A stretch of DNA of 64,000 bases from positions 62,001 through 126,000 of the forward strand of contig QPGO01000073.1 of NCBI GenBank assembly GCA_008632985.1, read 5' to 3'. Origin of the DNA: Psammoneis japonica. Lineage: Eukaryota. A model generated the notes under the pieces. It ran no database searches. It saw only the letters and a list, made by a program, of their open reading frames with translations, and was not told the DNA's origin. Both the position numbers and the translations under genes were made by a program. Shown here piece after piece: positions 28,174-54,800 of the stretch (position 1 is its first letter; the number at the start of each line of letters is the position of its first letter).

Positions 28174-29745
28174 GGTGCTACTGATGCTTCTTATGGTGGT
28201 ATGATTGATATTACAACAACTCTTGGTATATGTCTGCTACTTCTTGCGATTGTCTGCTATGGTACCGTAGCATCGTCGTCACGAGATAGATACGAGTTCG
28301 GAGTCACGAGCGGATCGAGCTGAGAAAATCTTTGAGGTCATTCTCGAAGGGCAATACTCTAGAGTGACCTGTTTAACGGGATTGATTCACTCGATTACAA
28401 CACCCATAATGTCATTAATGAATGTATAATATAAAACCTCTCACGTGACTCGTAGGGCTACAGCAACACGAAGTGGCTGGGGCGGTCCTTCGAAAATTTT
28501 CTCCAAGTCGAAGAGGCATTTCCCCCTTTACCTGTAGTAAAGGCACCGTATTACGTTTAATTTCCGTTGACTGTGATTCTTTTATAATCATTATGAGTTA
28601 GCCGGGGCAGGGCTAGTTGGTCGCGCACGTTTGGGTTCGATGCAGCCGTGCAACTAGCCACACCCTGCAGGAAGAGCTGTTGGTGGCGCGCGAGCAGAAG
28701 CAACAAAGCAAAGAAAACGGCGTGGGTCAAAACGTTGTAAAATGACGCAACAACAAGCAGCGAGAAGAAACCCAACTTGACCCATGAATGCAGCGCGTGC
28801 ACATTGTCCAACCACTTCAACAGTGTCTCGCATTCCCAGCTTGTAGATGAGGGGACGGCGTTCGCGTTTCTCGCCACAGTGTTGTTGTGCGTTGTCGTGT
28901 TGTTTGCGCGCGAAGACCACGGGATCTATTTATCCGACAGTCACTGTGTTTTGGCAATGGCGGATGTTTCACTGTGTGCAATCTGAAGCCATTTTGAGAA
29001 GTGCTTCGCGACAACCCTGTTCGCACCGTCAAATGGAAATTTTTTTTGTGCAGATTCCAGAGTTCTTTCGGGGTGTTCTGTCAGACTTTTGAGTTGGCAC
29101 ACACATGTGTTAAAGGCATTAGCAAAATCAATGATGTGCAATGGCTTCAGAGACCGACACAAATTTATGTTCCATGTAGACCACGTAGATTGTGCACCGG
29201 CGGAAAATCCACGGCATGTCAATCACTCAGCAGCAATTCTGCGTGTGTCCTGCTTGCACCTCACACACATACACACACCTGCACAGTCTAATGACCGCGC
29301 ACACGTGCGCGAGATTGGATGTTTTTTAAAGATGTCCAAACCAAAATTACAAAAGTGGAATGAACAAGTTCATCACTTGCATTGCCGACATGCATCGTTG
29401 AACATGTGTTTCAAAGTCACACGCAAGAAACTGCAGCAGCACAATGACACGTGCCGCCGGTGTCCCACTTTACGACGTGACATCTCAGCGATGCTTGCAC
29501 GATTTCTCCGTTTCTTTTTCAATGTTGGGAGCAATTGCACAATGCATCCCACTGGGTTGGTCTCGTTGTGTGTCATTGAGAATTATGGATTTCTGTTTTG
29601 TCCAAAAAACACTCTCAGAACTGGCAAGTTAGACAGGCGCGTTGACAACAGAATGAACGATCAAAGCATTTTTGACAATGCTGAACACTTTTAACTAAAC
29701 TGTCCAGTGCTGCTGATCACAAGATGGAGCAGGCAAGACGAAACA

Positions 29746-30141
29746 GATGCATTCCAGACGCAGGTGGGAATCCGTGTGACATTGGGCCCGCAAACTTCTA
29801 CGTGCAAGCTCCGCAGCAAAATCACACGGCAATCAAAATGTCAATGATCGCCAACAGAAAATGAGGCAATTTTGCGAACGCACAAACTCGCCCATGATTG
29901 AAGCACATCATTTTTTACTTGGCCAGTTACATTCTTCAGACATTGAAGAATGCAACTGGCGCATTGTTGTTTCTATGAACTTGTCATGTGGAACGTCTGG
30001 GGCTTCGCAAAACAGCGAGTCTGGACAATTTTTTTTAAATGTCACACGTAGAAAGCTGCGTGCGAAACATGCGACGGATGATAAAAATCATTTGTGTCAC
30101 ACGTCAGCACTGCGAGCTCCCACCTGGGGCTGGAACGCGTC
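29746..30141. mobile_element. ~395-bp repeat unit with 24-bp imperfect terminal inverted repeats (MITE-like), copy 1
   Basis: Left end GATGCATTCCAGACGCAGGTGGGA and right end TCCCACCTGGGGCTGGAACGCGTC. Confidence 0.75.
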
Positions 30142-30361
30142 AACAGAGTCTTGTTGGTGCCAAAGGTGTTTGGCACATTAGAGAACCCCAATGCAGTGGG
30201 CCGCTTTTGTGACACCTCTTGGACCACTTCTTCGGTTGCTCTTGCAAAAGTAAAATGCAATGATGACACTGTGCCAACCAATGACAAAATGTCCAATCAC
30301 TGCCTTTGCATGCAGTTGAACAATGCACACTCAGTTCATTGCTTGCACTCGTCAAGCTGCA

Positions 30362-30758
30362 GATGCACTCCAGACGCAGGTGGGAATCCGTGTGACATTC
30401 GGCCCGTAGACTTCCACATGCGAGCTCCGCAGTAAAATCACACGGCAATTAAAATGTCAATGATCGCCAACAGAAAATGAGGCAATTTTGCGAATGCACA
30501 AACTCACCCATGATTGAAGCACATCTTTCATTACTTGGCCAGTTGCATTCTTCAGACATTGAAGAATGCAACTGGCGCATTGTTGTTTCTGTGGAACTTG
30601 TTGTACAAAATGTCTGAGGCTTCGCAAAACAGCGAGTCTGGACAATTATTTTTAAACATCACACGCAGAAATCTGCATGCGAAACATGCGACGGATGATA
30701 AAAATCACTTGTGTCACACGTCAGTGCTGCGAGCTCCCACCTGGGGCTGGAACGCGTC
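30362..30758. mobile_element. MITE-like unit copy 2
   Basis: Colinear with copy 1 and has the same inverted ends. Confidence 0.75.
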
Positions 30759-31154
30759 TGCAACGTTGCGCACACAAGCAGTGGATGCACTCATTGCAGC
30801 TCTTGTTTTTGCACTTGTGATCAGGAACGGTGCAAAAGCAAGTGCATCCAACAATTGGACACACACCAGGTTGAGTTGGTTTGGTCCCTGCCTCGCCCAT
30901 GCCAACACCAGCACCAGCAGAATTGGAGTCAATCGCACGACCAACTTTTTCGCCATGCGACACTCGTGCCGAAAACAAGTTGTTGCCACAATTCCGTTCA
31001 ATGCCATTCATCTGATGGGCATGAAGAAGAGCACCATCAGCGCCCACTCCATCACCAGTTTGGGCCCGCTCTTTCTGTTGCTGAGCTCATTCTGCCGCCA
31101 TTTCCTGCTCTGCTTCAGCTCTGATTTCTTCGTCTCGCTCACGCATGCGATCTG

Positions 31155-33600
31155 TCATTCTGTCCTCTGCACTACTGAAAGCTTTGGCAAAGGCATCCTC
31201 TTCTCCCACTCTTGATTCTGCCATGCTTTCATTCTCAAGGCGTCTGCATTGGCAACCTGGATGTTTCGCACTGCAAGGACAGCGCTTTCGAGTTGCAGCG
31301 CACCGAGGTTTGTTTGGTTCGCACCAGCTTTCAAAAATCCTTTGTCCGACTCGGCACCACTTTTTAGTGTCATTGAACGACTCACCCTGTTGCTCCAAGT
31401 TCCAAGGCTCCACCCCATGGGATCTCCTTTGGCAAAGCAATGCGAGGCATGCTCCTTCAAGCACGCGACACACTTTTCGTGCAAATCATCAAAATCCGAG
31501 TCGGCGCCGAGCGACTCATCTTGCTCTGACAGTGCATTCTCAATAAAGTGAAAGACAGGACTCCACTGAACAGAGTGAACCTTCCTCACCTCTGGTGGGA
31601 GAGAGGAAGGCACAAGGTCTCAAAAAGGTCGCACAACCTTCGTGCCATCAACTGATGCGGTTTGGCCAGAAAGCCAAAATCTCAGGCCTTCCTTGATTGT
31701 TGTTCCCGATGGAAGACGAAATTGCTTTGGAACCATGCATGTTTTGTTGTCACAGCAAAAGGTGGTTTCCACTGGACCATCATCAGAAGCCACGCCAATG
31801 CGGCCGTTTGTGCACGTGTTGCTGCCGCCCGTGGGAAAGGACCGCAAAATGGTCTTGAAACCGTCCAACTCAGAATGCATCATTTGCGTCATCTCCTCCT
31901 GAAAACTTTTGAATGTCCCTTTCAGACGATCACTTGTCACATGTCCAGAATCCCATGCTTTTTGATCTGTCACATCCGACACTGCTGCCACCAACATCTC
32001 CGTCTGCGAGTCCACATTCGCAAGCATCAAATCGGCTTTGCACATCAACTCGCACAGTTGTCTTGCCATGCCGACATGGGGTGGCATCCCAGTGGGGACA
32101 GTCAATGCCCCTTCTGTGGGCTCTGTTGTCACAAGAGATTGCAACTCCCCCAAAAGTCTCCTGTCGTGGAGGATTGACAGCTTCGAAAAGTCGTGACCCG
32201 GCACGCTCACCACAATTTCAATCAGTGACTCGGAATGATGTGTCATGCATGCAAAGCACCACAGTGGAACAGGAACAAAAGTCTTGTGTTCATTTGTCAC
32301 ATTCTCGCCAAATGTCATCATCACACCAAGTTTCACTTTTTCATTGGACATCAGATCTGCAAGCTTCCAATGAGGTGGAAGCATGTCAAATGACGCATCG
32401 TTCGGATCCAAACCCGCAAGAATGCGTCCAAGACATTGGTTGCCAATGCTGCCAAAATGCCAATGGCAATCAAGGACACTCCAGACAGCCCACTCTCCAC
32501 AATGTGCAACAGCTGGAATTGACCGGGGTGAAGTGGTCCCATTCAAGGCTGCAGGTCCCCGAGCCCTTTCGAATGCCACGCGGATTCACACGACTCGGAC
32601 ATGTGTGATTTGTGGTTTCGTCCAAGTGGGCCTGCAAAATTCCAGCAATCTGCTCACAACACTTGGTTGCACACATTCCTTCCTTCACATCTTCATCCAA
32701 AAAGAGAGCATCGTTGCCAACAAACTTGTCACCATGAAGAGCACAATGAACACCCGTGCCTGTCCAAAAGCACATCATCCAATCCAGTGGGTTGGCATGT
32801 GCATTTTTCTCTGAAAGCCTCTCTCCAGACTTGTCGGCCTTTGCTTCTGCACGCTTTCCAATCAAGCTGTGTTTGGAATTCTTCATCCGCAAGGGATCTG
32901 TGGATGTTGACCGGGCCATGAAATTCCACTGGGCAATGGTCCAGAACCACACAAACACGTTGTTGGCTTCTGTGCTCCATTTCAGCATGAGCTTGCACAA
33001 GGAAACGGGAACAGGATCAGCAGAGTTTTCATCTGCATCCCCTCTCTTTCTTGCTTGAGCATGTTCCTTCTTGCACCCAGCGAGGAACTTGTCAAACATT
33101 GCACGGAAGCTCTCAGGCAAGCACTCGTCTGCCATCTTGGCACCCCACATCATGGCGTCTTTGCATTTTTGGATGTCTTCACATGACTTGAGCTTTCCAT
33201 TGGCCTTCTTCTTGTTTGACACTGAGAAATGCAACACAAACTGGTTGTTCATGCCTGCACACACAAGGTCTTCTCGGTGCCGATTGAAGCAGTGCTCAGT
33301 TGGATCACAAAGGTCTTCAGCAGAAACCTCTCTGACGCCAACAGAACAACATTCAGGGTCATTCTCCTTCCAAAACTTGGCCAAACGTGCAAGTCTCTGA
33401 TGACAGTTTTGTCGGCATTTGTCTCCCATTTCCAACTGGGCGGTTTCATTGCACTTTTCGGCGAGGTCGCCAGGCGCTGACAAGTCACCCCCAAGGATTG
33501 GTGCATCATCATCAGTTTCACGCTGATGGGGGTGCATGCATCCACTGTGCCTTCCAGTTCACCCCCCTGGCATGTTGTGTTGTTGACATTGTCAGGAGAT
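31155..33600 (-). mobile_element. Decayed Crypton-like (tyrosine recombinase) DNA transposon ORF
   Basis: WNFMARS (catalytic Arg box), RGIRKGSGT (HxxRKG box) and SIPAVAHCGEW...VLDCHWHF...GNQCLGRILAGLDP...LPPHW, resembling stramenopile Cryptons. Tyr positions read C/H. Confidence 0.72.
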
Positions 33601-34687
33601 GGCAATGAAATGAACTGTTGCTGTTTGTCGGACTCAGATTGTGGGTTGATTGTTGCGATGGGAATGGCGCGAATGGCAGAAACTTTGATGACACAAATCT
33701 TACGAGTCCCGGGAGGGAGTCTTGTGGTGGCGCACAGGATCTTAAAATGCTGGCATGCACTCTGCGCAGAACACACATGGAAAAGACAAACGGCATCATG
33801 AGGCACTCCGGGAATGTCAGAACAGGCTGTTCTAATTTTCCGGAAGTGCCAACCCGGAGGGACGCAGCTCTGGCAGGTTTTTCCACTGGGAAGCACTTCT
33901 GGTGCTTTGGAACATTGGAGCAGAGTTTTTTGACAGTGACGTGTCAGGGTCATTTCTGTTTTGACATTCCCGAAGACCGCGCAATGCTGGCATGACATCA
34001 GAATTGTTGGCGATCATTGTCATTCCCAAACCGTTTTAACGCACGGCCTGACATGCCCACTCCGTCACAACAAACAGCTGATGCCTTTTTATCAACATCT
34101 GCACTTGCCGGAGGAAGTGTCTTGGTTTGCCGTTTTTGGTGGTCCCAATTTTGGAAGCATCAAAAGCAAAAAGATGCCATTTTTTGATGACCTCCAACAT
34201 TGTCGAGTCCGCTGCTTTATCACAAAGCACCAATGGCAGCTGGAGTGGTGCCGCCAATCCCACAGATGGTGGCGGCAATGATCAACTTGATGCATGTTGT
34301 CTGTGACGATGACTCCACCCAAAGAGAATGTTTGGAAAAATGAAGAATCATCTGGCAAAAACCGCCTTTCGTCGGAGTCACGAGTGCCGAAAGGTGATCC
34401 AGCGGCGGAAATCGATGGAGTGTGTGCCAGCAATTTGTGAGCCGAGACAATGGCATTGAATCGGCAACGAGAAGAACATGCTGTGTTGGGAATTCCTTTG
34501 CTGCTCGAGCTGTTTCCTGCTGGGTGAAAAGGGCCACCGTTTCTGCCACGTCGAGAGTTCGAAGCAGCAAACAACACTCAACCACAATCACTTCACAGAG
34601 ACACATCATGACAACAAGAGATTGCCAATCCGCTCAGGAATGCACCAGAAAATGCCATGAGACCAGCAGTGGCATTGTCAAAATGAT

Positions 34688-35086
34688 GAAGGGTTCCAGT
34701 CCTGGGTGGGACTCCGTGTGACATTGGGCCCGCAGAATTCCACGTGTGAGCTCCACAGCAAATTTGTGCTGCAATGAAAATGCAAATGATCGCCAACAGA
34801 AAAAGAGGCAATTTTACGAATGCATCTCCTCCTCCACACACTTGAAGTGCACCATTGGTGGTTTGCCCGGGTGTGTTCTTCAGACATTAAAGAATGTGCC
34901 CAGAGCATTTTCATTCTCATGAATGTTGAAAATGGAAAGCCTTTGGCTTTGCAAAACAGGGAGCATGAAACAATTTCAGAGAATGTGACATGCAGAAATG
35001 TGCGTGCGCAACATGCGGCGCGATCCAAAAAACTGTTGATGTCACAGTGCAGCAGTGCGAGGTCCCACCTGGAGCTGGAACGCGTC
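34688..35086. mobile_element. MITE-like unit copy 3 (more diverged)
   Basis: ggtgggactccgtgtgacattgggcccgcag...aatgatcgccaacagaaaa...tcccacctggagctggaacgcgtc. Confidence 0.72.
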
Positions 35087-35949
35087 TGGCATTGGCGTGC
35101 GCTCACTTCAATGTGCTGCTTTCTGTGCATGTTGTCTGGGTGCATGGACCGGCTGTTGCTTGTGTTCAATTTTGTAGCAATTGCGGCAGCTGCATGGGCC
35201 AATCATCTTGGAGCTGCGTGTGATGTGTGGGATGGTGTGGACGGTGTCACACTCTCACTGTTTCCCCAAAAAAAGCATCATGAATCACTTTCTCACTGAT
35301 GGCACTCGGCACTCGACTTCTTTGGAGGACTCGCCCTGACGGCTGCAGATTGCAAGTTTGTGTCCTCCGTGTGGAATGACACACACAAGACATGTGATGA
35401 TTCACCAATGACAATGAACGTTGACTGCGCTGCAATCGCGATTCTCCCAATGACACACCACCTGCAATTGTTGCAGCAGATCCATTGAACACATTGCCGC
35501 CAAGGGAGTTTGAACACTTTGACATCTCTGCCTGACGCATCATGGTGGCAGTCTTTGTCCCATTTTCTCTTGACTGACGCCACCCAAAGGGACAGTGTCG
35601 AGAGTGATGCCTTCATCCCCATTCTTTGCACAGCGGCTGGTTGTCTTTGCTCGGGAAGGTCATGGGGTGTGACACTCACATCGCTTGAGGACAACTCTCT
35701 CAAACTGCGTCAATGCATTCCGGCTGCACTGAGTTGATCTCCTGCATGCTCAGAGGGCATTGTTCCGAGCTTGATCATGGCAAGAAGTTCAGTTGCAGTG
35801 CTTTCACAGAATTCAGCTTTTTTGCATTGCCTTGAGGCGCGCGATTGTGGATTTGCATGTCAGTTGTGAGGAGATTGACAACGCACATGCGAGTGTGTGA
35901 TTCAGGAGATCTGGCACTCCAATCAAGTTCAAGTTGATCTTTGAAAAAA

Positions 35950-37520
35950 AAATGCTTGATGTGAACAACCTGCCATGCCCACAATTCAAAGACCAAAAGT
36001 CTGCGATCCGTTCATCGCCAAGAAGAGCTGCACCCCTGATGACAAGGAGTGGACCAGGTTGTCGAGGACCAAGATTGTTGAGGTTCCTCCTCAGCCAAGT
36101 GTCGTCATTGGTGGCAGACCAACTGGTCTGACTGCTGCCATTGACTGCAACGAGAGCTGCTTGACCAGCAAAGGAATGGCACAGTTGTGCGAAGCCCAAG
36201 ATGCATTTGCCAAGAGTGGTTCTGTGTTTGAGAGAGCTCAAATGGTTCGCTTGGACCCCGGGCGGGCATTGTCATGCTCCGCTGTCATTTGTGCACTGGT
36301 TTTTCAGAAGCATGTGCTCCTGCAGGAGGCAAGATTGATTCTCATCTCGGAAACACTTTGCAAGTTTATTGAGTTCCCTGCACTCAAACGGTTTGCTTGG
36401 ACCCCGGGTGGGTGTTGTCATGCTCCGCTGTCATTTGTGCACTGGTTTTTAAGAAGCATGTGCTCCTGCAGGAGGCGAGATGGATTCTCATCTTGGAAAC
36501 ACTTTGTGAGTTTATTGAGTTCCCTGTGCATCGTTTCACATCTTTGTGCTGCTTCAGAATGCTCACAATGGTTGTCATGTCCTGTTGTTGAAATGCAGAC
36601 CAACGCATGGATTCATGGAGATCACAAAGATCTTGAGAACACGCTCCATTTGGAAGTGAGCAAGATGGGCCAACAAATCATCGAGTTGACAACAGCGGCG
36701 CTAGATGCAAAAGATCCACCACCCATGGAGGATGGAGGACATTGAATGCCGTCGGGAACTTGGTCCGGACCAGCTGAGAACTGGTGCAGAGTGTGAAGTC
36801 TGCATTCGTGCTGAGGATGTCATTCGCCCCTTCGTGCTTGTGAGAATTGATTTGCATGGAGGCGCACATGCCTCCAAGCCTCTTGACCCTTCCAAAGAAG
36901 ATGTCAAAGCTTTGCAAGCTTCACTGCCAGCTGTTTGCCCCAAGGGCACCAAGCAGAAGGGCAGTCCAGTGACGGGGGTCATGCGCATGACCGGTTCAAC
37001 CTCCACTTGAAGGGACGTTGAACAGCGAGGCTGTTCAGGGAGGAACTGGTGCCAGCTGCAGAGTTGATGGTGTTTTTGTTTCACCCCAACCATCCCTGTG
37101 ATCGCGGCATTGACTGACTCCACTTCAAGGTCATGGAGAGCAATCAGGATCTTGACAACGTTGTCTCCAGGGACTGTGGATGACAAAGCACGCCATTTTG
37201 ATGGCTCCAAGAGGCATGGAACTCAACAAAAGCTTCGTCATGTGCCTTTACAAGCAACTGAAGAATGCCACCATGGACGAGTTTGTCCAGCAAATCAGAA
37301 ATGAGAAGTGCACCCAAGTGACATGCTCTGACAAAGAGTCTCAAGGCCCATGCTGAAAGTGTGGAAGTCCCAGCCGTGCAGCGGTGTGGCAAGGTCAACA
37401 TCATGCAACAAGTCACCAAAGACACAGGAAGGCAAAGACGAAGATCTCTTGGATGAACCGTTGGAAGATTCAACAACAGGATCATCATCGGGTGACGAAC
37501 CAGCCAAGGGACATTGAGTC
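35950..37520 (+). pseudogene. Decayed FAD-dependent oxidoreductase-like host gene fragment with ~147-bp internal tandem duplication (36241-36385 / 36386-36530)
   Basis: VVIGGRPTGLTAAI (degenerate GxGxxG), EAQDAF and ERAQMVRLD. An apparent intron runs from ~36507 to ~36598. Confidence 0.5.
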
Positions 37521-39540
37521 TTCAAGCATGTGTTCTTTCTGCAGTGGATTTGTCATCGTCCGTTGCTCCCAACACTCCATTCTGCAAATTTGGATTTGGG
37601 ACGACTCCTGCCGACAGTGGCAAAGCTGTGCAGAAGTTGTGCACAACCAAGCCTTGAGTCTCTGTCTTGTCAGATGTGGAGAAATTTTGTCTGACTGTGA
37701 CTGCTGCTGTCAAGAGCTCTCTGCACCAGCACACAATTTTTCCAAATGCGACAACGCTGCTGCATCGGCGCTTTCTCCAAACCTTGAATTTGAGACAATC
37801 AATGGCTGGTGCATTTTTCTTTAGGATGATTTTAAATGATTTCAATTTCTCACCCTCATGGTTGTTGCCACTCGCCTTTAGAATGACTGCACTCCCTGAT
37901 GAGGTGAGTGACATTTCCCCGAAGGTTGCAAGTTGTGGCATGGAGTGCACCACCTGCTCACAATGATTTGATTCTCAAATGGTGTTCAGCTTTGTTGCCG
38001 CCAACTGTTGCGTCTTCTTCAGTGCTTGACACTTTTCTCAACTGCACTGCACCGCAACTTGGTTGTTGCTGTCTTGAGGGACTGTGGCTCAACGAAGAAA
38101 AAGAGGTGGACTGGGCTGGTTCCACTTTTGTGCACGTCGTGCGTGTGTCACCGGGCATCTGCCTTGTCTTGCCCTTCCAGCAGTGGGATTGACGGAGCCC
38201 ATGTTTTTGAAACTTGGTGAGAAGCTTTCATCCCGCAGCAGGAATGTGCACCCGACAGCTTTGCAGCCCACACATTCAGCGTGCTTCATCAGGATTGGGA
38301 CAACCTGATCTTGAGCTTCCAGTGCCCCTGTGGCCCTGTGCCAGGGTTCTGCACATGTCAACTCCATTTTTTCAAGGCAAACGGCTCCACCTCGTGCTCA
38401 CCCCAGTGTCGGGTCTGCCACCCCTCTCACACAGGGCAGGTGCAATGACGTGTCATCTCCTGGGTGCCAAAGGATTGAGCACAATGCTCGCTGCGGTCTT
38501 GACTGAGTGCAAAATCCCAATCCATTCAGATGACATTGCCAACCTGGCGATTGTTGCAGAGGCTGTCAAGGTGCCAATCAATCCTTTCGAATGGGATTTG
38601 CTGCATTCTTGGGGTCGTGGAAGTGCCACTCTCACACTTTCTTGGCATTCCGTCCAATGCTTTGAAACTTGTGGATCCTGGCATTTCATTTGATGTTGCT
38701 GACATTGAACTTGACAATGGCTTTAGTTCGCCTGACCATTTTGATGGAAGGGGGCATTCCAGGCTTGGATGCAATTGTGAATGCAGGACAGTGTAAACCA
38801 TGTGTTGCACTCCACTGCTCGCTTTGCTGGAGAGCTGGAAACGCGTTGAAAGCCCCACAGCTCTGCCAGCATCGGTTGCAAGCAACATCTCCAAAGTGTC
38901 ACTTCGTTTCTTTTTGGGAAGGACAAGTTGAAGAGCGGCGATGATTTTTGGTGCTTCCAAGAGGCAAGAATGGAGAGAACGAGAAAGAGGGTGGGTTGGT
39001 GTGGCAACAGACGAATCAGGAGTTCTAGACCACGCGAGTTTAACTCAAGCGTGGATGAAATTGCAGCAGCAATTGTGAACGCAGAACGCAGATGGTGGCG
39101 ATGATCTAGTGCTGTTGTGTCAATGGAGGAAAATCACACTCGAGCAGAACCGAATCCAGGGAACAATTGTCCTTGCAGTGTGCTGGCACAGAAAGTCAAG
39201 AACTGCATTGTGTTTCATCATAAATGAATTGTGCCTTGTCCTCCAAAGACAGGTTTCAAAAGCAGACTATTTCCAAAAAAGTGGGTGTCTTGGTTGAACT
39301 TCCAACTTCAATTTTCCTTGGCGATGCCAAGAAGAAGGCAGACAAAATCAACCAAATCATCTTTCTTCTTCCCCAAAACGGCAACATTTTCCACGGGAGA
39401 GACGGGATTGTCTGAAAAGCCTCTGGCATCCAACCGGTTCGCAATGCTCCACAGCTTGGGCTTCGTCAACCCATTTGCTTGCCGAAATTCGCGCAGGGGT
39501 GCCGTTGTCCCTTTGCAGATGTCTTCCTGTGTGCAGGTTT

Positions 39541-39783
39541 TGACAGAAAATGAAGGTGACTGGGTGGAAGAAAACAACAACTCCTTGCTGCTGCCTGAAC
39601 AGCAGATGAGTCTCCGTGCAGAGACCGTTGCAGGAGCCGAAAGACTGGTGTCGTGATGTCGGCACTGCTGTCATTGTTCTTGTGAGCCGAGTGGCTTGAA
39701 AGCAAGCTGCATCGCGCAACGCACGCAGAACTGAGAGCACACACACTTGTGTGACAAACTAAAATCTTGTTCAAATCCTGTCA
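39541..39783 (-). repeat. 3' LTR
   Basis: TG...CA ends, adjacent to the PPT, paired with 43705-43948. Confidence 0.93.
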
Positions 39784-39957
39784 CTCCCCAGTTTGCTTGA
39801 GGGGTCAACAGCAATGGATTCAAAGTCGGATTGGTTGAAAGCCTCGGGATCAAAGTTCCAAAACATTAGAGGACAAAGGAGGCTCCAATGTTTGGGAGTG
39901 ACCCCAATGCTTGCTGAGGATGTCAGCTGGGTTGCGGGAGCCTTCGATGAAATGAAG

Positions 39958-41730
39958 CTAAAGGAAACCGGAGGCAATCGCCTCACGCACACGATGGAAT
40001 GAGAGGACGGTGTGTTGCTTGTCTAACTTGGAGTGCGGGATGGCAGCACTGTCCACAACCGACTTGTTGTCTCCAAACATGTGACATGTTTCACGAATGG
40101 GAACGCCAAGGTGACGCAAAGTGATGCACAGATCAATGATCTGCTCAACGCATGTCCTTGCGGCAACAAACTTGGATCCACACGCAGCGGTCTCAACTGT
40201 TGCTTGTTTCTCAGAGAACCAATCAGCCGGAAACTTGTTGAGGAAATGGAGGATGCCGGTGACAGAGCGTCCAGTGAGCATGCAATGGAACAAGTTCGCA
40301 TCAACGCAGTGTGTGGTGGTGAGAAACTTGCCAAGCAGCTTGGGTGCATCTTGCGGGAGCAGCTCTTCTACCTCCCCATGCACAGATTGAGCCCAGTCAC
40401 ACACGGGCTCAGGGAGGTCCGAACAGCCGGGCTCCTCGGTGCGCACTCGGAGGGCGCCATGATGCATCTTGGAGAGGAATCCGCAGATGCGTTTGGCGCG
40501 GTCTGGGTGGCCTTGACGGGGTGCTGCACGGAAGCCAGAAAGGGACATGACAGCCACAGCAATGTCAATGTGACCTGGAGATGCGGCCCATTGCAGGGAT
40601 CCAATCAAGGGTTGGAATTGGTGGATGCCATCCGGTTTGAGCAATTCGGAGGTGTCAAGCTCAGGGTGGTCACCCTTGTCAAGGGGTGAAAGCACATCAG
40701 TGCGGGGCTTCTCCTCAAAAAGGTGCACACAGTTGTCAACCATGTGCCCAGTGTGCTTGCAGGGAGCAAGGCACAGGGTGCCGTCTGGGTCACGGGTGAA
40801 GTCGCAGCCAAGATGGAACTCCAATGGTCCAGTGCCCTTGAGCTTGAACTTGTGTTTCTCCATGAGGGTGTCTGCAAAAGCCTGGGGGTCCTTCATGGCA
40901 AAGGCCAGGTCATCCACACACACTGCCATGCATTCGCAGTGGTCACCATTCCTGCGCAGCCAGATGACGTGTTCAGCTTTGCATGGGAAGAAGCCTTCAG
41001 CATGCAAGCAATCAACAAAGCATTCATGCCATCTGAGTCCGGAGCTGCGGAGTCCATGCAAAGCCTTGTGGATGACAAGGATGTGTCCTTCCAGGCCGCC
41101 AAACTCGGGGCCTGCTGTGATGTGCAGTTTCTCTTTGGTCGCAGCTTCGAGGCAGGCGTTCCCAATGTCAGTGGCCCAGGTCTCTAGTTCGTTGAGTTCA
41201 GCCAGGAAGATCATCATTCGCAGGCCACACAGAGACACTGCTCCGGAATGGACACTGTCGACGGGCACGTCTGTGAGGTGTCCATTGGCAACAAGCCTTG
41301 CTTTGTGCCACCCGTCATGTTTGACGTCACAGACGAGGTGCACCCAGATCTTCTTGTGTCCTGATGGAGCACTGGAATCCTCGTGGTGTCCACAGTCGTG
41401 GAAGACCTTGCACTCATCAAGCTGAGTCATCTTGAGGTCCGTTGCGCCTCCCCACTTGCAGTTGCCATTGCGCTCATCAAGGGCCATGGCATGCTTGCAG
41501 TCCCGTGGCACTTCACACCCATGCTTGCATCGTGGCGCAGCATGAAAGGTGCATGACTTGGCTTGGTTGGCCATGCAGAATGGCTTCTTCTGGCGAAGGG
41601 CTGTCTTGCGAAAACATCTCCATCCTTTGGTTTCTAGAAGGCCGTGCTCACGCACGCAGATGGCACAGGTTGTGGGGTCGTCCTTGGCAATGATGGCAAG
41701 GGGTTGGACGTGATCTCCCCATTCTCCCAT
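39958..41730 (-). pseudogene. pol: Copia reverse transcriptase-RNase H, inactivated (YVDD reads CVDD)
   Basis: HKARLVANG, DIGNACL, KALHGLRSSG, VCVDDL, VDANL, GRSVTG, FGDNKSV. There is no Tyr in 590 aa. Confidence 0.93.
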
Positions 41731-43704
41731 TCAAGCATGATGTTGCAGCTTGAGCCTTTCCAAGAGGGATCATGGGGTTGCAATGGTCCTTCGTGCGATG
41801 CAATGCACTGGAACTTCCAGAGGGTGGTGTCCTCGTCTTCTTGCTCAATGTGGTGCATGATGTCATTGCAGGCCAGCAAGTGAACTTGACCAGTTCAGGA
41901 TTGCCTCCAATTTTCCAGTTGTGGTCCTCAACGGCTTTGACGATGCAGGCTCTGTGGCATTGACCATCCTCTTGTGTCTTCATGAGGAAGGTGCATCCGA
42001 TGACATCCTTGGGGTCAAAGACCGGCATTTTGGGCATCCTGATTGCCTCCCCATCTGGTGAATCTGGCAAATCCTCGGAGTCGTGGTGGGATTTAATGAC
42101 AGGGTCAGCAGTTTTCTCATCAGGAGGATCAAGATGCAGGTTTGGAGCAGACGGATCACGGGCAGAGTGCACGTTGGAACGGCAGAAAATCTTCTGAGTG
42201 TCATCAGAAAGCATCTTGAATGTCATTTGGTGACCAATGTGTTCGGCGATGCCAACGAAGTGACTGCGCAATTCATGAGATTTGGACAGCCAGTCGGAAT
42301 CATCCAGGTGGCAGCACACGGGTTCCCACCATTGAAAGCGGAGGAGTGGGCTGATGTCAGGAGTGGAGCCGGATGGCACCTCGGCAGGGTTGCGCCAGTG
42401 GAGCTTGGCTGACGCCATGTGGTTGAGCACAAAGCACACGCACATCAGGGTGAGCAGTCAGGTGCAAGGCGGGGACTCAAAGCAATCCATGATGGTGTTG
42501 GCCATGGTCTTCACAGTTTGGCAGTGGTGTTCAGCAAAATTCTGATGCTGGTGGTGAGGCTCGCTTTGCCAACTAGAGATGAAGAGGGCACGAAAGATGC
42601 CAAGAACCTTGTTGCTGATTTCAACCTGAGCACGGTCGCTGATGAGCTTGGATGGGGCACCGCGGTTGCGAATGTTGTCCTCGAGGGTGTTGACAAATTC
42701 TTTGTCAGTTTTGGTGCCATGCACGTCAGTGACGAGAGATTCCGTGCCGACAAAGAGCTGGGTGCTGGTGCAACCAGAGTCAACAGCAGGGGTGTCGGAG
42801 CAGACCGTGTTGGCAGCAAAGGGTTCATTGCGTTGGTGGACATTGAGAGCCAGGTTGGGCGATTTGTGTGCCTTTTTCAGGTGCGTGCTGGCTGGCATGC
42901 GGGCGTGCTGCATTGTGCAATCAAAAGTGCGGCAGACAGTGTCCTTCGGGAGAAAGCCAAAGCAGGGGCAGAGGGACTCAAAGTCGGGATCCTTGGGATT
43001 GAGTTCGCGCTCATGGCATTCACAGAAGAAATCAGATGTCGGGAGCAGGTGATCATCAAGGACGGAGCCTCTTCAAGCATGGCGTTGTTGGCAACCGGTT
43101 GCTTGATGACCTGGGCTCGAATCCTGGGTGTTGCATTTTTCAAGTCGTTGGGTCAGATTTGGTCTAGTTGGTCAATCTTGATTAAATCCTGTCATGGTGC
43201 GATTCTCAGAGTGACGCACGCGTCTCTCTGTCTCAAAAACAGGGCATGCCCACCTCGGGGGGATGGCATTGTCGGGAAGCCCCCGTGAAACCATTGGGGC
43301 AGAACAGGGTGTTGCCGGTGTGCAGAGGGCAACCGTCAGTTCAGCGCACTTTGAACGAGGGGGGCGCAAAAAATTGCCCAGGGAATTTGGAATCTGTCAG
43401 TGATGCAGTCAACATCGGTGCGCTGTGGGGAGAGCCATGCATTGCGGCGAGAGTCTGCATTTGGGCCCTGTCTTCAACTCCGGCATCGAAGATGCAAGTG
43501 GGTCCCTTGACAGCAGTGGAGCTTTGTGAGAGGAGCGATTCAACCCACCCTTCCAAATGTTCCTGGGCAACTTAGAAACCTTTTGGGGGCGATTCAGGGA
43601 CAGCCACATCAGACAGATTTGTGACATGTGGGGAGTGACAGAATTTGAAGAAGAACCAAATGCCGGTGTGTCACTCTCTGGCTGAAACACATCCAGTTGC
43701 TGTG

Positions 43705-43948
43705 TGACAGTTTTGAAGATGACTGGGTGGAAGAAAACAACAACTTCTTGCTGCTGTCTAAATGGCAGATGAGTCTCCATGCAGAGACCATTGCAGGAGC
43801 CGAAAGACTGGTGTCATGATGTCGGTGCTGCTGTCATCATTCTTGTGAGCCGAGTGGCTCAAAAGCAAACTACATCGCGCAACGTGCACAGAACCAAGAG
43901 CACACATGATTGTGTGCCACAAACTAAAATCGTGTTCAAATCCTGTCA
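43705..43948 (-). repeat. 5' LTR
   Basis: Paired with 39541-39783 and followed by TSD GGTTT. Confidence 0.93.
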
Positions 43949-45493
43949 GGTTTTGCAGTCAAGTTCTGGGAGTTCAAAATGGCCAGACGGACTCAACAGC
44001 AACGCTCTCTTTTGATGAAGAGCGGCTTGATCATGTGCCAAATCCTTGCGCAGCTCATCCACCTCTTGCCCCATGGTTTTGAGTTCTCGCTTGAGGTTCG
44101 CGCGGCTCGCCAAAAGCATGCGGATGTTTTTCTTTTTCAGTTCCAAGCTCCTTTCCATCTCAAGGATCTCCTTGAAAAGCCTGTCTTGTTGGTCTGGTTG
44201 CGCACCGGCACCATTGGAGTTGGTCAAGTGTTGGTGTGGCTGGAGGGGGATCGGGGAGGGCATGGGAGGGAAAAACTGATTTGCATGAGCAGCTGCTGCT
44301 GGCGCCGGTGCAGAGCACTGGCAGTTGGCAGCTGCAGGCAGTTGGCAGCATCATGGTGGTTGGCAGCAGCAGGATCAAGATGCGGGCTTGTGGCACCCAG
44401 GGCCCTGAGGCAGCGGCACTCGCAATGTCGCAGAAGCAGTCAGCGTTGCAGGGCATGCCATTCACAGTCTGGCTGCTTGCACCAAATGCCGTCTGCCTGT
44501 CTGTCTCAAAGATCGTGGCTGCCGGGCGGCAGTGGAGCCGTGCCCGTCTGGTCACCTGTCAACCGGACCGATGGCGTGAATCCCGCGAACGAGCCGTTTT
44601 GGTTTGGAGCTTGACCACGATGCCCGTCCCCAGCTTGACCATCTTGCATGACGCCGACCAGCCGTTCAAAGACACTGCGATTGGGAGTCTGCATGAAGCT
44701 GTTCGGTCGACTGGGTCATGGTGAACCAAAGCCGTCAAGCAAAGGGGGCAGAAACGCCGACTGCTGCGACGGCGACGAGCCGTTTTGGTTTGGAGCTTGA
44801 CCATGATGCACGGAGCCTTGCCGCGCGGAGTGCTGCTGCAGGTCAAAGCCACCACCAATGTGCTGGAAGTTGTCATTCACATGATTGAGTTGTGGCAAAC
44901 CAATGCCATTGAGCAAAGGGGATGACAATGCCGACCGCTGCGACGGCAACGGATTCAAAAATGCGTTGTCTGAGCTGTGCGGCGAGGGCTGGTGGTTCTG
45001 AAACAAACAATCAGCAAACGACAACAAATGCAAGAGACTGTGTGTTCAACCGACGCGATGGGAAATGGTGAAAGAGACGGGTGTGCACCATTGTGGTTTC
45101 AAATGTTGCGTGTGTTGTGTTTCAAACTTCATGTGTTCTGTGTGTCAGAACGCGAGCTGGGAAAATTATGAGAGAGAAGCAGTGATGCTTTTGAACGCGG
45201 AAAGACCTCGAAGCCGACGGCCGCTGTTTTGAAAAATAACGGCAGAATTCGGATTTGGAGCAACGGCCATGAAGAGGCAAATTGTGTCTTGGTGGCGGCT
45301 GACGCGCCTGCGTTGACTTTGACAACGTCTTTGACGTCACGCTGATTCTAGGTTTTCGAGGTAAACGATTCGAAAATTGCCCTGAGAATGTTTTGACGAC
45401 GGAAGAAGCGCACGAGCTAGATTATCTTGCAATCTAGCATTCAAGCCCTTATCATTGTCAAAGATAATTTTTGAGGGACTACTATAACATCTA

Positions 45494-51839: not shown

Positions 51840-54800
51840 GAGCCTTGCCGGTGGCACCATTGAATGAGATCTTCTTGCAAAGAACTGAGCATTCATCACA
51901 GAGAATGCAGTTGCTGGCGCATCCGCTCCTGTCGTGGTTTACGTCCATTGTGCCATCTTCAAAGGACGGGACAAAGTCGGTCTGTGACAAGGTGAAACGG
52001 CAAAAGGTGCACACGCCCAGCCCAATGCCAGGAAAAGGACCTTCATCTTCAACATGGTGGGTCATCAAGAGGTGGCTTCCAGTCATGACAAGCCATGCAA
52101 TCGTGCAAGGCGGCAGTCTCGCATTCGCTTCAACATCGGGCATGCGAGTCGTCTTGCTGTTGCGTGTTTCACCAGCTGCAATTGCAATGGACTCGATCAT
52201 GCAGGAGACCACTCCGTCGCCTTGCTTTGACCGCCACAGTGCATGCATGGTTGAGTCACCTGCAGCAACGGCTGCATCTTCAACTGTGTGTCGTGCCAGA
52301 GGCGCTCAATCCTTTGGTGCACAGGAAATGCAAGTCTGCTTGTCCCTCCAATTTCCATGCATGGATCCATTCTGTAGAGGGTTGGGGGCAGCACAGTGCA
52401 GCACAACAATCCATTGGAATGGTGGAGATTGTCCGTGACCCAACTGATGGTGCCTGTCAAGAACCGAATGACTGGGACAAAGCCCAGTTCTGCTTCCCCG
52501 ACAATTGTCATCGGTTTGTGTGTCGAGAATCCGAGTCACATTGTCCGGTTCAGAACAGACAGTCACAACATTCCCATTTGGAAGCACGGCGCTTGGTTCA
52601 ACAAAATTGAACAAAACCAAAATTCTACATTTAAAGTGCTGCTGCGCTTCCACCCTGCAACTCCGGCAACAAGCTGGCCCACACCCCCAGTGCACGCAGG
52701 TCCAATGAAATTAGTGAAGCACTGTTTCAACAGAATTGTGTTCATGCGCAGAGACAAGAGGCGAGGATGAAGAATCATCTGCATGGAAGTGCCAGGCAGG
52801 TGTTGTGGGAAGCCATTTGAAACATTGGTCACCAATCAAGCACCAAAGTCGTTGTCCACAGCATGATTTGCAGCCACTGAAGACAACAGAGACAGCACCG
52901 TTTCTCCGGAAGCTGCCAGAAACTCTTTCAAAACCAAGGCGCTTTGGCAAGGTCCATGAAGGATGCGATTTTTCGAAGACAACCATCATCCAACTCGGGT
53001 GGACGACGCGGCTGCATGCTCTCATTGTTCTCCTTACAGTTGTTCATTCTCTCGCATCACGAGTCAAAGGCCAATGCAGTGCATGGTGACTTTTTTGTTG
53101 TTGCTCATGATGTGTTGCTTTTCTTTGTTTTCTTCGTTGCTTCGCTTGGTCGTTTTTTGGTCGTTGGTTGACCGGTCGTTGGCGCTCTTGATTGCAAACT
53201 CCGCCGTCATGCCTTGTTTCAATTGACGTGTGAATGCACATAAAAGACAATTGAAGAAGTTGAATGAGTCGTCGCTTGTCCGTCACCACATTGAGCCAAC
53301 ATTTTCAAATCATGGTCCAAGTTTCTCCTTCCACTGGGCCGCTGGAATCTTGTGCCAGGAAGTGAAAACTCTTTGTTCTGCTGACTTCCAAAAGTGCTCT
53401 TCACATGGCCCCCAAATGTGCCAGGAAAAACATGCAGCACATCACGGGGTGCCACTGTCACTTGAACTTTGGGCATGGGAGCACCTGATGCAGTGTTTGT
53501 GCATGAAAAAGAGCTTGTGGCAGACATGGCATGAGAACAACAAGCAAGCCAGTCACAGAGCCACAACATGAAATGACTGGGACAAAGGTGCAATGCTCCC
53601 ACTGCTTTGTTTCACCTGAGCCAAAAGGATCTCACATGAGCCAGGCACAAGACTGTCAAAGAATGAGGGCAACTTCTTCAGTTGGCAGCAACACCCAAAT
53701 CTTGGTGAAGACAAGCAGCCAAGAGGTCAAAAGAGCAAGACAAAAAGATCAGCCAGTTGGGCCTCAGGTGATTGCTGCAATTTGATCCAGCAGAAAAGGC
53801 AAAAGGGCACTTCACCTGCTGTGAGAAAGGAAAAGTGGAGTGTGTGCTCTTCAGCATCATGTCAACACCGAGACTGTGATGATGTGCACTTGGCACTTTT
53901 AAAATCCAGCACCCTTTAAAAAACAGCCTGAAAAGTCAGCGCCTTTTTTTCTTTTTTAGCACGTTTTGAAAAAGACGTGCAAATCTGGCACCTTTTTAAA
54001 AATTGAGCACCTTTGTGGCAAAGGTTGCAAGTGGGCAACATCACATCAAACAAAGGTGATGGAATTCAATCCATTCAATAATTTGATGTCATGACGGTGA
54101 TGTGTGTGATCAATTCTGACAGTGACCATGGTCCAGCTGCACCAAGTGCTGACCACATTGATGCTGTTTTAAACCTGTTGCAATGTCACTCAGTCCTTGA
54201 CAGCTCAACACACATGACATTTACACTGGTGCAAGAGAGAGAAAGCAGATGCTTCATGCAAAACATGGAGCTTCTTTTGACACTGCAATTCTGTGCTCGG
54301 GAGTGCCAGTGGCCTTGAGGTGATCATGCCAAAGCAAAACCAGTGCAATGTTGTTGCAGTTGATCTCATTGTCAACATGACTCTTGTTTGCATGTGTCTG
54401 CAGAGTGGCACTCTGAAGCCACCCCACACCTGCATTTCCATCGGAGATGCACTCAGCCAGAATCTTTGGCAACACAAGCCTGTTTGCTGTGCTGTTGTCT
54501 CCAGTGGCAACCAGTGCATTCAGTGAAGAGATTGCAAGACATTGTGTGCAATTGTCTGGTCTCTCTCAAGAGCGGTGGGAAAATCCATTGCACATCCACT
54601 TTGGTGGCATTGCTTGTTGCCACAAGAGCATGTCCAAGCATGGTGCTTGTTTTGTTGAAAAGGGTGAGTCAAAAACCAGTGCCACAGTCCTCAACACCAA
54701 AGCCACACAAAATGCCAGCACAATCTTCGCTCTTGTCTCCAGCCTTTTGGTGCGCCATTTGATGTGGTCAATCTTGTTTGTACTTGACCATGCAACAGAG

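Follow-up and report, generated by a model that had tools for sequence, protein, structure and literature searches.

RIP, known from Neurospora and other fungi, changes C to T, mainly converting CpA to TpA, and thereby enriches TA and lowers GC; duplication of a sequence is its trigger, and it depends on a protein of the RID/DNMT4 type and on a premeiotic stage. Adenosine deaminases prefer a T on the 5' side of the edited A, and both the tRNA adenosine deaminases of the TadA/ADAT type and the TadA-derived DNA adenine base editors turn A into I, which is read as G, at an A that follows U or T (U33-A34 in the anticodon loop); to our knowledge, no natural member of the TadA/ADAT class acts on chromosomal DNA, and we know of no eukaryotic activity that deaminates adenine there. 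Polymerase eta mutagenesis is associated with the WA motif, and in retroviral replication the plus-strand strong-stop DNA becomes the 5' LTR. In diatoms, according to the accessible part of PMC9998398, transposons are CG-methylated and decay of the methylated CpG is known, and DNMT4 enzymes of unknown function occur that are relatives of RID, the RIP factor of fungi.

We studied an LTR retrotransposon in a single window (the whole stretch of DNA analysed, 64 kb long), which is our evidence base. Its mutations resemble RIP, being transition hypermutation in place, at the DNA level and on both strands, in chromosomal transposon and repeat regions with sharp limits, with reading frames destroyed and changes spilling into neighbouring sequence. 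They differ from RIP in direction: C>T changes at CpA with TA enrichment are not what we found, since TA is erased (TA>TG/CA at 25 of 28 conserved Tyr columns), A:T becomes G:C at TpA, and GC is near 50%. Nor does duplication appear as the trigger, tandem duplicates at 7-25 kb being untouched. Decay of methylated CpG matches the CG>TG/CA component (Arg columns, island CG O/E and four CG/CA sites of the LTRs), and a CG deficit with a matching TG/CA surplus is present in the transposons and not in the genes; but this decay leaves TA untouched, yields no Tyr>Cys/His, does not explain all differences at YR sites between the LTRs (p 0.0075), and does not fit a relative in which TA is lost without loss of Arg. 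Retroelement copies edited at the RNA/cDNA stage by ADAR (A>G) or APOBEC (G>A) likewise carry clustered transitions with a neighbour-base preference (accessible part of PMC4866542). The marks of these enzymes, however, are strand-specific and precede integration; in our case both strands are changed, the LTRs are unlike each other and flanking non-retroelement DNA is hit. The footprint of RNA A-to-I editing, A>G confined to the sense strand and identical in both LTRs, was absent. For TadA/ADAT enzymes the same chemistry would apply, an analogy that may offer a lead for the enzyme class only. Our search of the openly accessible literature, including the accessible parts of PMC2806351, PMC9998398 and 10.1101/2025.10.24.684338, turned up no account of diatom transposons mutated by TA>TG/CA.

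Structure of the element and of the TA-free islands

The element is a dead deletion derivative of a Ty1/copia (diatom CoDi-like) LTR retrotransposon (Table 1). Its LTRs are genuine, 243 and 244 nt long, direct, with TG..CA ends (TGACAG...CTGTCA), and flanked by a 5-bp target duplication, as in Ty1/copia; the span, the LTR pair and the intact GGTTT duplication proposed by the sequence-only reading were all recovered by direct reading. The orientation is minus, because of the purine tract adjoining 39784 and the strand of the RT frame, so the LTR names of that reading have to be exchanged: its 5' LTR is the element's 3' LTR and vice versa. An RVT_2 reverse transcriptase lies downstream of the integrase region, as P0003 residues 764-1160 (integrase region) match upstream of residues 1228-1832 (RT/RNase H) on the minus strand. 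The RT/RNase H frame has relatives with 57-66% identity across 98-100% of the query and holds zero Tyr in 590 aa; its motif YVDD now reads CVDD and KALYGL reads KALHGL. A complete gag-protease-integrase-RT-RNase H polyprotein is lacking: the coding part is spread over three frames with in-frame stops, the middle region shifts frame twice (tblastn of P0003), and P0003 residues 1-763, about the first 760 of the ~1900-aa relatives and covering gag and protease, gave no tblastn match. The summed depth of the sequencing run X1 is 276-647 in bins of 43169-43639 versus 6,000-47,800 in the eighteen bins of 40029-43011, and the TGA at 42458 is a sense codon in all 39 run X1 contigs covering it (T>C, 3786 of 3786 depth).

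Table 1. Features of the element and its surroundings (positions of the window)
Feature	Position	Strand	Remarks
Second TA-free island	3000-6250		CG nearly lost too (O/E 0.14 in 4001-6000)
Intermediate zone	28750-30750		3-5 TA per 250 bp; holds repeat pair 29744-30141 / 30360-30758
TA-free island holding the element	30750-45250		0-4 TA per 250 bp (0-1 in 47 of 58 bins)
DENN-domain gene fragment, non-retroelement	37914-38913	+	Pfam DENN E 3.8e-07, 30.6 bits, cut-off 23.4; frameshifted
Target-site duplication, left copy	39536-39540		GGTTT read directly; same as 43949-43953
LTR, element's 3' LTR	39541-39783	-	~88% identity to the other LTR
Polypurine-tract side of internal region	39784-39800	-	minus strand ...AAACTGGGGAG directly before LTR
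RT / RNase H reading frame	39958-41730	-	590 aa; Pfam RVT_2 E 2.8e-20
Middle polyprotein piece, other frame	41648-42457	-	269 aa; tblastn of P0003 residues 764-1160 and 1170-1238
Integrase-region piece	42458-43072	-	204 aa; ends at in-frame TGA
Short 5' internal region	43073-43704	-	gag and protease missing; low run X1 depth
LTR, element's 5' LTR	43705-43948	-	A/T at all 10 single-difference sites
Target-site duplication, right copy	43949-43953		GGTTT
Third TA-free island	52000-56750		CG O/E 0.13 in 54001-56000

The window contains three sharp-edged islands with 0-1 TA per 250 bp versus 8-18 outside. Island TA O/E is 0.02-0.08 and CG O/E 0.13-0.6, with GC near 50%. The 14.5-kb island around the element has a CG O/E of ~0.5 and a CA/TG O/E of 1.5-1.7, and at its right edge (45250) TA returns to 12-16 per 250 bp. 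Within the element TA O/E is 0.06 and CG O/E 0.55 (the LTR 39541-39783, counted over 39541-39785, has 1 TA and 10 CG); the intact relatives L001 and L003 have values of 0.83-0.85 and 1.03-1.14, and three gene ORFs of the window show a CG O/E of 0.95-1.12. The host is a diatom, and for the GH31 ORF of the window the best named relatives are diatoms. A dinoflagellate host, which a TA O/E of 0.42 had suggested, was rejected on these relatives and on the lack of any match to the spliced-leader motif.

A Pfam scan of 45 island ORFs gave the DENN fragment as its single match. Its 45 homologues, mapped by tblastn, reveal the changes Leu>Pro (CCA, twice), Leu>Ser (TCA), Tyr>His (CAC), Ala>Val (GTG, twice) and Arg>His (CAT). 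Both processes, loss of TA and loss of CG, are confined to sharply bounded islands.

Direction of change in the coding part

We compared the coding part with a set of 118 relatives and took as conserved the 546 columns with at least 80% agreement among at least 60 of them. The 28 conserved Tyr columns now hold 16 Cys (13 TGC, 3 TGT), 9 His (5 CAT, 4 CAC), 2 Phe and 1 Trp, and not one Tyr, as opposed to 3095 Tyr, 21 His and 7 Cys at the same columns across the relatives. Arg is retained at 26 of 42 conserved columns (22 as CGN) and has become Cys, Trp, His or Gln at the other 16, while other conserved residues are mostly retained at ~75-100% (Val 28/32, Asn 15/15, Lys 26/29, Phe 20/22). At the level of sequence comparison, these columns show the polarity of both processes in the coding part, TA>TG/CA and CG>TG/CA, and the losses of Tyr and Arg separate a near-saturated TA process from a partial CG process. 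General AT>GC drift or biased gene conversion was ruled out, because Asn, Lys and Phe columns are retained, and WA-motif mutagenesis of the polymerase eta type was set aside, as AA contexts are spared (Lys and Asn). A rule set by the 3' neighbour was not significant for the TA changes at Tyr codons (Cys 6 and His 6 where a purine precedes the codon, Cys 10 and His 3 where a pyrimidine does; p 0.23).

On the sense strand, the changes at conserved Tyr codons comprise 16 A>G and 9 T>C (binomial p 0.23). This bears on ADAR-like A-to-I editing of the element RNA before reverse transcription, with the changes inherited at insertion, against which the sequence-only reading had already argued. The 5'-U preference of RNA adenosine deaminases would yield TA>TG, and edited retroelement copies are known in vertebrates (accessible part of PMC4866542); but RNA editing alone is contradicted by the strand symmetry, since it cannot yield T>C on the sense strand (9 of the 25 Tyr changes), and the LTRs differ at seven reciprocal sites, the flanks and the DENN fragment are equally hit, and TA is retained in many family copies. 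We regard this origin as extremely improbable, and the earlier argument holds.

The metagenome relative P0011 has lost 9 of 27 conserved Tyr to Cys or His and kept Arg in 39 of the 39 columns read, which indicates that TA loss is independent of CpG decay. Its Cys and His states form same-type runs (CC, CCC, HH; runs test p 0.064, suggestive only). A metagenome scan gave only three distant relatives, with 58-66% identity, and no family copy, and a 24-nt LTR stretch had no match in viral_contigs. Run X1 contains 0.59 of the sampled 31-mers of 39001-44500, and 967 of 6991 aligned contigs are at least 99% alike; its contigs show 3 differences in 379 positions over 43235-43613 and 2 in 241 over 43860-44100. 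Among the differences listed for run X1 (40 of 857, none at an LTR position), four, at 40212, 40505, 40536 and 40919, have CA or TG in the window and TA in 63-87% of the depth.

The element family is very abundant in run X1, where partly mutated copies also exist.

These data also bear on an assembly or base-calling artefact, in which modified bases (5mC at CG, another mark at TA) would be misread as transitions. Some long-read base-callers miscall methylated motifs systematically, and the records do not give the sequencing chemistry used for the assembly or for run X1. Against it, run X1 holds the 31-mers and near-identical contigs just described, no conserved Tyr column reads Arg (CGY), as would sometimes be expected from independent miscalls on both strands, and P0011, a separate data set, has the same pattern; an artefact seems very improbable.

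Differences between the two LTRs

The LTR alignment has 233 columns (39551-39783 versus 43714-43948); the 10 bases after the outer TGACAG, which are divergent (AAAAT versus TTTT), lie outside the count. Besides one 2-bp indel, it contains 26 substitutions, of which 24 are transitions and 2 are transversions. Reciprocal CA/TG pairs occupy seven sites (39600, 39663, 39675, 39697, 39722, 39732, 39744), four are CG/CA (39616, 39627, 39653, 39725), two are TG/TA (39597, 39709), and four transitions lie off YR dinucleotides (39556, 39583, 39594, 39706). When 24 transitions were placed at random on the LTR in 20,000 trials, they produced a mean of 0.49 reciprocal sites, at most 4 and never 7 or more, and on average 12.2 fell at YR dinucleotides (P for at least 20 = 0.00065). 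The earlier statement that nearly all differences are transitions at YR dinucleotides agrees with these counts, and every example it cited of the three pair types is present in the alignment.

The four CG/CA differences are ordinary CpG decay. It might be supposed that decay of methylated CpG accounts for everything, all reciprocal sites having once been CG that was lost in both LTRs, and the TG/TA pairs being G>A. Such decay is real (16 of 42 Arg columns lost through CGN>TGN/CAN, the four CG/CA sites, and the island CG O/E), and at one CG/CA site a paralogue carries TG, which is what a CG ancestor would lead one to expect (aligned by eye). The LTR pair by itself cannot distinguish TA from CG ancestry, and our assignment of the reciprocal sites is based on decay models together with coding-region rates. 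With 6 CG kept in both LTRs, 4 single and 7 reciprocal sites, homogeneous CpG-only decay is rejected (p 0.0075), about 4 reciprocal sites being expected only alongside about 10 single ones, under the premise of an equal rate at all sites, so that the rejection would lose force if CpGs differed strongly in their rates. The TA decay model fits the corresponding counts of 1, 2 and 7 (a = 0.88, p 0.11), whereas the coding-region rate of CpG loss, c = 0.42 (16/38 CGN), predicts only about 1-2 reciprocal sites. As CpG decay alone also leaves the 25 of 28 Tyr>Cys/His changes, the island TA O/E and the P0011 Tyr loss with intact Arg unexplained, we consider it a distinctly improbable account. Probably about 1-2 of the seven reciprocal sites are CpG-derived under the model, and most (~5 of 7) would have been TA at insertion.

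Paralogous copies were aligned by eye. At one LTR site, TG, TA and CA are found across the two LTRs and a paralogous contig, which suggests TA ancestry, as TA is the sole state one step from all three. Five paralogous fragments give nine observations at four reciprocal sites, all TG or CA with zero TA or CG, and these do not decide between TA and CG ancestry; at one of the two TG/TA sites a paralogue carries TG, which makes the ancestry of that site ambiguous.

The repeat pair of the intermediate zone (91.5% identity) has 3 TA/TA, 8 TA-single, 4 CA/TG, 18 CG/CG and 6 CG-single sites; the TA model fits its counts of 3, 8 and 4 (p 0.69), and CpG-only decay is rejected (p 0.0045). Two CA/TA sites of this pair have CA in both outgroup copies, which favours C>T creating TA, in line with CpG decay alone, so the opposite change also occurs. 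In the tandem duplicates at 7-25 kb (0.3-1.5 kb), transitions are about as frequent as transversions, there are 0-3 CA/TG sites per 300-1500 bp, and TA is retained (TA/TA 5-33 per pair).

The sequence-only reading had concluded that each LTR was changed independently in place, at the DNA level and on either strand. The two-stranded Tyr changes, the 14.5-kb island including the DENN fragment and the family copies with TA sustain this conclusion. A qualification concerns the 10 single LTR differences: without exception, G/C stands in the LTR at 39541-39783 and A/T in the one at 43705-43948 (sign test p 0.002), a skew that is not predicted by a symmetric in-place process. Part of the LTR divergence might instead stem from reverse transcription, through deaminated cytosines in the plus-strand strong-stop DNA, which would cover these ten differences and is compatible with mutation after insertion. 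Read on the sense (minus) strand, eight of the ten are C>T and two G>A, with A/T always in the 5' LTR, and the strong-stop route is textbook retroviral replication; but the sample is ten sites only, four of which lie at CpG and fit in-place decay, the route is unable to make reciprocal sites, and we know of no such cytosine deaminase in diatoms. Its contribution seems improbable.

A TA-directed process as the proposed explanation

Taken together, we favour with a probability of roughly 0.6 the reading that a copia derivative within a transposon island was mutated in place after its insertion, at both TpA and CpG. A derivative without gag and protease would have entered such an island on a diatom chromosome, and the inserted DNA would then have been changed on both strands by two dinucleotide-specific transition processes, one converting TpA to TpG or CpA close to saturation, the other converting CpG to TpG or CpA at ~40% of sites, as usually happens to methylated CpG in transposons. 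Either dinucleotide, TA or CG, may end as TG or CA, and the LTRs would have been identical at insertion; the reciprocal CA/TG pairs would arise because the two LTRs often ended in opposite states. On either strand, the chemical step would turn A into G at 5'-TA-3', most simply through deamination of adenine to hypoxanthine, and a candidate actor, as a proposal only, might be an activity that targets the chromatin of silenced transposons.

The loss of island TA to TG and CA points to a DNA-level mutation process aimed at transposons. It is possible, though we regard this as doubtful, that it represents a diatom genome-defence hypermutation and chemical mirror of fungal RIP, in which adenine at 5'-TA-3', on both strands of silenced transposon islands, would become a base read as G, so that every Tyr codon would be erased and the coding capacity of transposons with it. 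Alternatively, the changes could be a passive by-product of base modification or repair bias in silent chromatin (e.g., a mispairing modified T or A at TpA), likewise in place and at the DNA level but with no dedicated mutator. That the whole island is affected, including the non-transposon DENN fragment, that the zone at 28750-30750 is graded, and that repetition as such is no trigger, the tandem duplicates outside the islands being untouched, would suit such a by-product. We know of no TpA modification in diatoms, and the accessible parts of the literature searched on diatom adenine methylation gave none; moreover, loss is near-total while the adjoining intergenic DNA is normal, and the patchy same-type runs of P0011 look more burst-like, so we consider a by-product unlikely.

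If mutation at TpA in place is real, CpG decay is not the only point-mutation process that disables diatom transposons: a second one, specific to TA, acts beside it, and its direction and dinucleotide target are unlike those of RIP, methyl-CpG decay, ADAR/APOBEC and TadA/ADAT as these are generally known. It would open the search for a new class of genome defence, possibly also for a natural activity that edits adenine in DNA, and would explain TA-free, TG/CA-rich blocks of diatom assemblies; the RIP-mirror version, if true, would be the first natural mutator of eukaryotic chromosomal DNA to be directed at adenine. The sharp islands, the abundant family in run X1 and its partly mutated copies make the question open to direct testing. 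Dating of diatom retrotransposons by LTR divergence would also need correction, ages and 'bursts' being too old by a factor of at least 2. The inflated age that had been claimed for this element is borne out by its LTR p-distance, which falls from 0.112 overall to 0.0455 at positions outside YR dinucleotides and to 0.0086 when only transversions are counted.

Structure of the element and differences between its LTRs

The LTR element in the window is 4.4 kb long, its direct repeats measuring 243 and 244 nt, and is coded on the minus strand, so that its left-hand repeat is the 3' LTR and not, as a previous sequence-only reading had labelled it, the 5' LTR (see table). Its RVT_2 frame is 57-66% identical to metagenome polyproteins (most of about 1900 aa) over 98-100% coverage among the matches listed, and 48-51% identical to P0001 and P0002, two relatives from longer contigs. 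In tblastn searches the integrase part of another relative, P0003, aligned upstream of the RT/RNase H part on the minus strand, with three different frames involved, and the first ~760 residues of the relatives (gag and protease) had no counterpart in the element. With gag and protease missing and the coding split over three frames, the element is a dead, non-autonomous Ty1/copia deletion derivative. A purine run (...CTGGGGAG, minus strand) adjoins the LTR at 39784. At the place expected for gag and protease the derivative has much rarer sequence: the summed depth of contigs from sequencing run X1 was 276-647 over 43169-43639 (the 5' internal part) versus 6,000-47,800 in eighteen bins at 40029-43011.

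Features of the element and of the gene fragment upstream of it
Feature	Position	Strand	Characteristics
LTR, element's 3' LTR	39541-39783	-	starts TGACAG, ends CTGTCA, GGTTT outside
LTR, element's 5' LTR	43705-43948	-	starts TGACAG, ends CTGTCA, GGTTT outside
RVT_2 frame, 590 aa	39958-41730	-	Pfam RVT_2, E 2.8e-20
DENN-domain gene fragment, frameshifted	37914-38913	+	Pfam DENN 30.6 bits; 45 homologues mapped

Alignment of the two LTRs over 233 columns shows 24 transitions, 2 transversions and an indel of 2 bp. Seven reciprocal sites (CA in one LTR, TG in the other) account for 14 of the 24 transitions; the remainder comprise 4 CG/CA, 2 TG/TA and 4 outside pyrimidine-purine (YR) dinucleotides, and 6 CG and 1 TA are common to both LTRs and unchanged. 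When 24 transitions were placed at random, the mean was 0.49 reciprocal sites and the maximum 4 in 20,000 trials, seven never being seen, and 12.2 transitions fell at YR positions (P = 0.00065 for at least 20). The pattern of differences described in the sequence-only reading is thus real and far above chance.

The single (non-reciprocal) differences are asymmetric: all ten have G/C in the 3' LTR and A/T in the 5' LTR (sign test 0.002), and for eight of them this amounts to sense-strand C>T in the 5' LTR. Synthesis of strong-stop DNA is a textbook step of reverse transcription, and deamination of the plus-strand strong-stop DNA at this stage predicts exactly such sense-strand C>T changes in the 5' LTR; however, there are ten sites in all, four of them at CpG, and we consider this route a minor possibility that does not exclude others. 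Inside the outer TGACAG, 39547-39551 reads AAAAT and 43711-43714 reads TTTT, a contrast of an A-run with a T-run unlike all other differences between the two LTRs.

Direction of change in the coding region and in the LTRs

A reciprocal CA/TG site may descend from CG, by C>T, or from TA, by A>G, in both cases on either strand; the LTR pair alone cannot distinguish these ancestors, and no further family copies were found in metagenome or viral collections. To polarize the changes, we aligned 118 relatives to the element with tblastn and used 546 columns with at least 80% agreement among at least 60 relatives. None of the 28 conserved Tyr columns is kept in the element: they read Cys in 16 cases (13 TGC, 3 TGT), His in nine (5 CAT, 4 CAC), Phe in two and Trp in one, versus 3095 Tyr, 21 His and 7 Cys in the relatives at the same columns. 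In the element, TA>CA also turned two Leu into Pro (CCA), a Leu into Ser (TCA) and a Val into Ala (GCA). Conserved Arg is kept in 26 of 42 columns (22 as CGN), and the 16 lost ones (8 Cys, 2 Trp, 4 His, 2 Gln) correspond to CGN>TGN or CAN. Other conserved residues are kept at about 75-100% (Asn 15/15, Lys 26/29, Phe 20/22), and a general AT>GC drift is rejected because these columns are mostly intact. The losses at Tyr and Arg columns show that two processes acted, TA>TG/CA and CG>TG/CA, the former essentially saturated and the latter found at 16 of 38 CGN codons. The neighbouring context had no significant effect on TA change at Tyr codons.

The assembly and run X1 come with no record of their sequencing chemistry, which leaves a small probability of base-calling artefacts at modified bases. 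Against this, X1 contains 0.59 of the sampled 31-mers and yields near-identical contigs, and no Tyr column reads Arg. Moreover, P0011, a copia polyprotein of 1888 aa that comes from a metagenome and otherwise looks intact, has Cys or His at 9 of 27 conserved Tyr columns, in runs of the same type (CC, CCC, HH), and keeps Arg at all 39 columns read. P0011 may represent a copy mutated in part, or else an assembly that joins mutated with unmutated copies into a chimera. It shows that the process extends beyond this genome.

For the LTRs we used a model in which a site is lost in each copy with probability p and then becomes TG or CA with equal likelihood, giving sites kept in both copies, kept in one, reciprocal, or concordant (unseen), with site rates assumed equal. 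For the LTR pair a CpG-only model was rejected (both/one/reciprocal 6/4/7, p 0.0075) and a TA model fitted (1/2/7, p(loss) 0.88, p 0.11). The same held for a second repeat pair in an intermediate zone (29744-30141 vs 30360-30758, 91.5% identical), where TA fitted (3/8/4, p 0.69) and CpG-only was rejected (18/6/4, p 0.0045). With the coding-region rates of 0.9 (TA) and 0.42 (CG), and with TA and CG as dense as in intact relatives, a 245-nt LTR should by our arithmetic hold about 5 reciprocal sites derived from TA and about 2 derived from CG.

Five paralogous fragments from X1 contigs were aligned by eye. Site 39597 reads TG, TA and CA in the two LTRs and a paralogue, TA being the sole state one step from all three; at 39616 the corresponding states CG, CA and TG make CG ancestral. 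Nine paralogue observations at four reciprocal sites are all TG or CA, favouring neither ancestor, and at one of the two LTR TG/TA sites a paralogue has TG. In the second repeat pair, two CA/TA sites have CA in both outgroup copies, so that C>T changes creating TA also occur. We infer that most reciprocal LTR sites were TA at insertion; part of the LTR differences is plain CpG decay.

In-place change and the TA-poor islands

Run X1 contains the element family in great abundance (6,991 contigs aligned). Among 40 of 857 differences listed, none of them in an LTR, four sites with CA or TG in the window (40212, 40505, 40536 and 40919) have TA in 63-87% of X1 depth, and six others have CG in 51-90%; many family copies thus retain states lost from this copy. 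The intact relatives L001 and L003 have observed/expected ratios (O/E) of 0.83-0.85 for TA and 1.03-1.14 for CG, versus 0.06 and 0.55 in the element, and the LTRs of L001 have 11 TA in common over 353 nt and zero reciprocal sites. The element's sense strand carries 16 A>G and 9 T>C changes (binomial p 0.23), and since both types occur there, editing of the genomic RNA alone is insufficient. ADAR- or APOBEC-type editing at the RNA or cDNA stage is excluded by strand symmetry, the LTR differences and the affected flanks, and the argument of the sequence-only reading against ADAR-like editing holds on the same grounds. Its broader claim, that each LTR was hit independently in chromosomal DNA and on both strands after integration, is supported with three qualifications: some of the differences are due to CpG decay, a TA ancestor was assigned to most reciprocal sites only indirectly, and the LTR asymmetry does not follow from the claim.

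Three islands (~3000-6250, 30750-45250 and 52000-56750) have sharp edges and contain 0-4 TA in each 250 bp, most bins having 0 or 1; outside, the count is 8-18. In the first and third, CG is nearly all lost too (O/E 0.13-0.14), and 44500-45000 keeps 19-21 CG per 250 bp with zero TA. Three gene ORFs in the window have O/E of 0.48-0.61 for TA and 0.95-1.12 for CG. The DENN fragment, a non-retroelement sequence matching about residues 1026-1379 of a 2713-aa homologue, lies within an island immediately upstream of the element and, as in the surrounding sequence, TA is missing from it; its 80 conserved columns include, in small numbers, Leu>Pro at two positions (both CCA), Leu>Ser (TCA) and Tyr>His (CAC), as well as Ala>Val at two positions (both GTG) and one Arg>His (CAT). 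The 73 residual TA of the islands lie mostly in TTAA, TTAG/CTAA and CTAG: 42 are in YTAR, versus 256 of 1686 outside (p 9e-16), and 1 in RTAY, versus 525 of 1686. Either a purine following on both strands makes TA resistant to the process, or the TA seen here were newly made.

A ~400-nt repeat has four copies over two islands (29744-30141, 30360-30758, 34694-35086, 56071-56198), the two closest showing partial TA depletion, an intermediate stage of the process. The first island also holds a diverged tandem array (5149-5854; copies 67-71% identical, offsets of ~100 bp and multiples) with 3-16 reciprocal sites per pairwise comparison.

Duplication as such does not trigger TA loss: in tandem duplicates at 7-25 kb, 69-86% identical today, transitions about equal transversions, TA is kept, and there are 0-3 CA/TG sites per 300-1500 bp. 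These segmental duplicates (7200-25450; period ~4.4-4.9 kb; e.g., 18581-20102 vs 22978-24496, 80% identical) carry long ORFs without Pfam match except a weak LysM. The host is a diatom: the closest named relatives of an intronless GH31 ORF, 25015-27606(-), come from Attheya, Seminavis, Nitzschia, Pseudo-nitzschia and Odontella (60-66% identity), and the dinoflagellate spliced-leader motif is absent.

Mechanism, known systems and dating

These data show that, alongside CpG decay, TA was changed to TG/CA at the DNA level, regionally and on both strands. The two are separable, as TA but not CG was lost in P0011, and CG was kept and TA lost at 44500-45000. The simplest option would be a single chemical step, A>G at 5'-TA-3' on either strand, in which adenine comes to be read as guanine, as it would be once deaminated to hypoxanthine; for T>C there is no simple route by deamination. 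Targeting would track silenced transposon islands rather than repetition. A 5'-T rule is also that of tRNA adenosine deaminases, which may hint at the enzyme class, no more. A passive route, in which TpA-specific base modification or biased repair in silent chromatin causes the change, competes with such an enzyme as an explanation.

Fungal RIP likewise mutates transposons in place and regionally, by transitions that destroy reading frames, but it acts by C>T and enriches TA, whereas here TA is lost, and it is triggered by duplication, whereas here tandem duplicates are unaffected. Diatoms have RID-related DNMT4 genes whose function is unknown (PMC9998398). The CG component is ordinary methyl-CpG decay. 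Searches of the openly accessible literature gave no report of TA>TG/CA mutation in diatom transposons, nor of the wider pattern of TA-free transposon islands in a diatom.

Over all positions the LTRs are separated by a p-distance of 0.112; it rises to 0.171 at YR positions, falls to 0.0455 at non-YR positions, and is 0.0086 when transversions alone are counted. Standard LTR dating would therefore overstate the age of the element at least 2.5-fold, in line with the inflation that had been predicted from the sequence.
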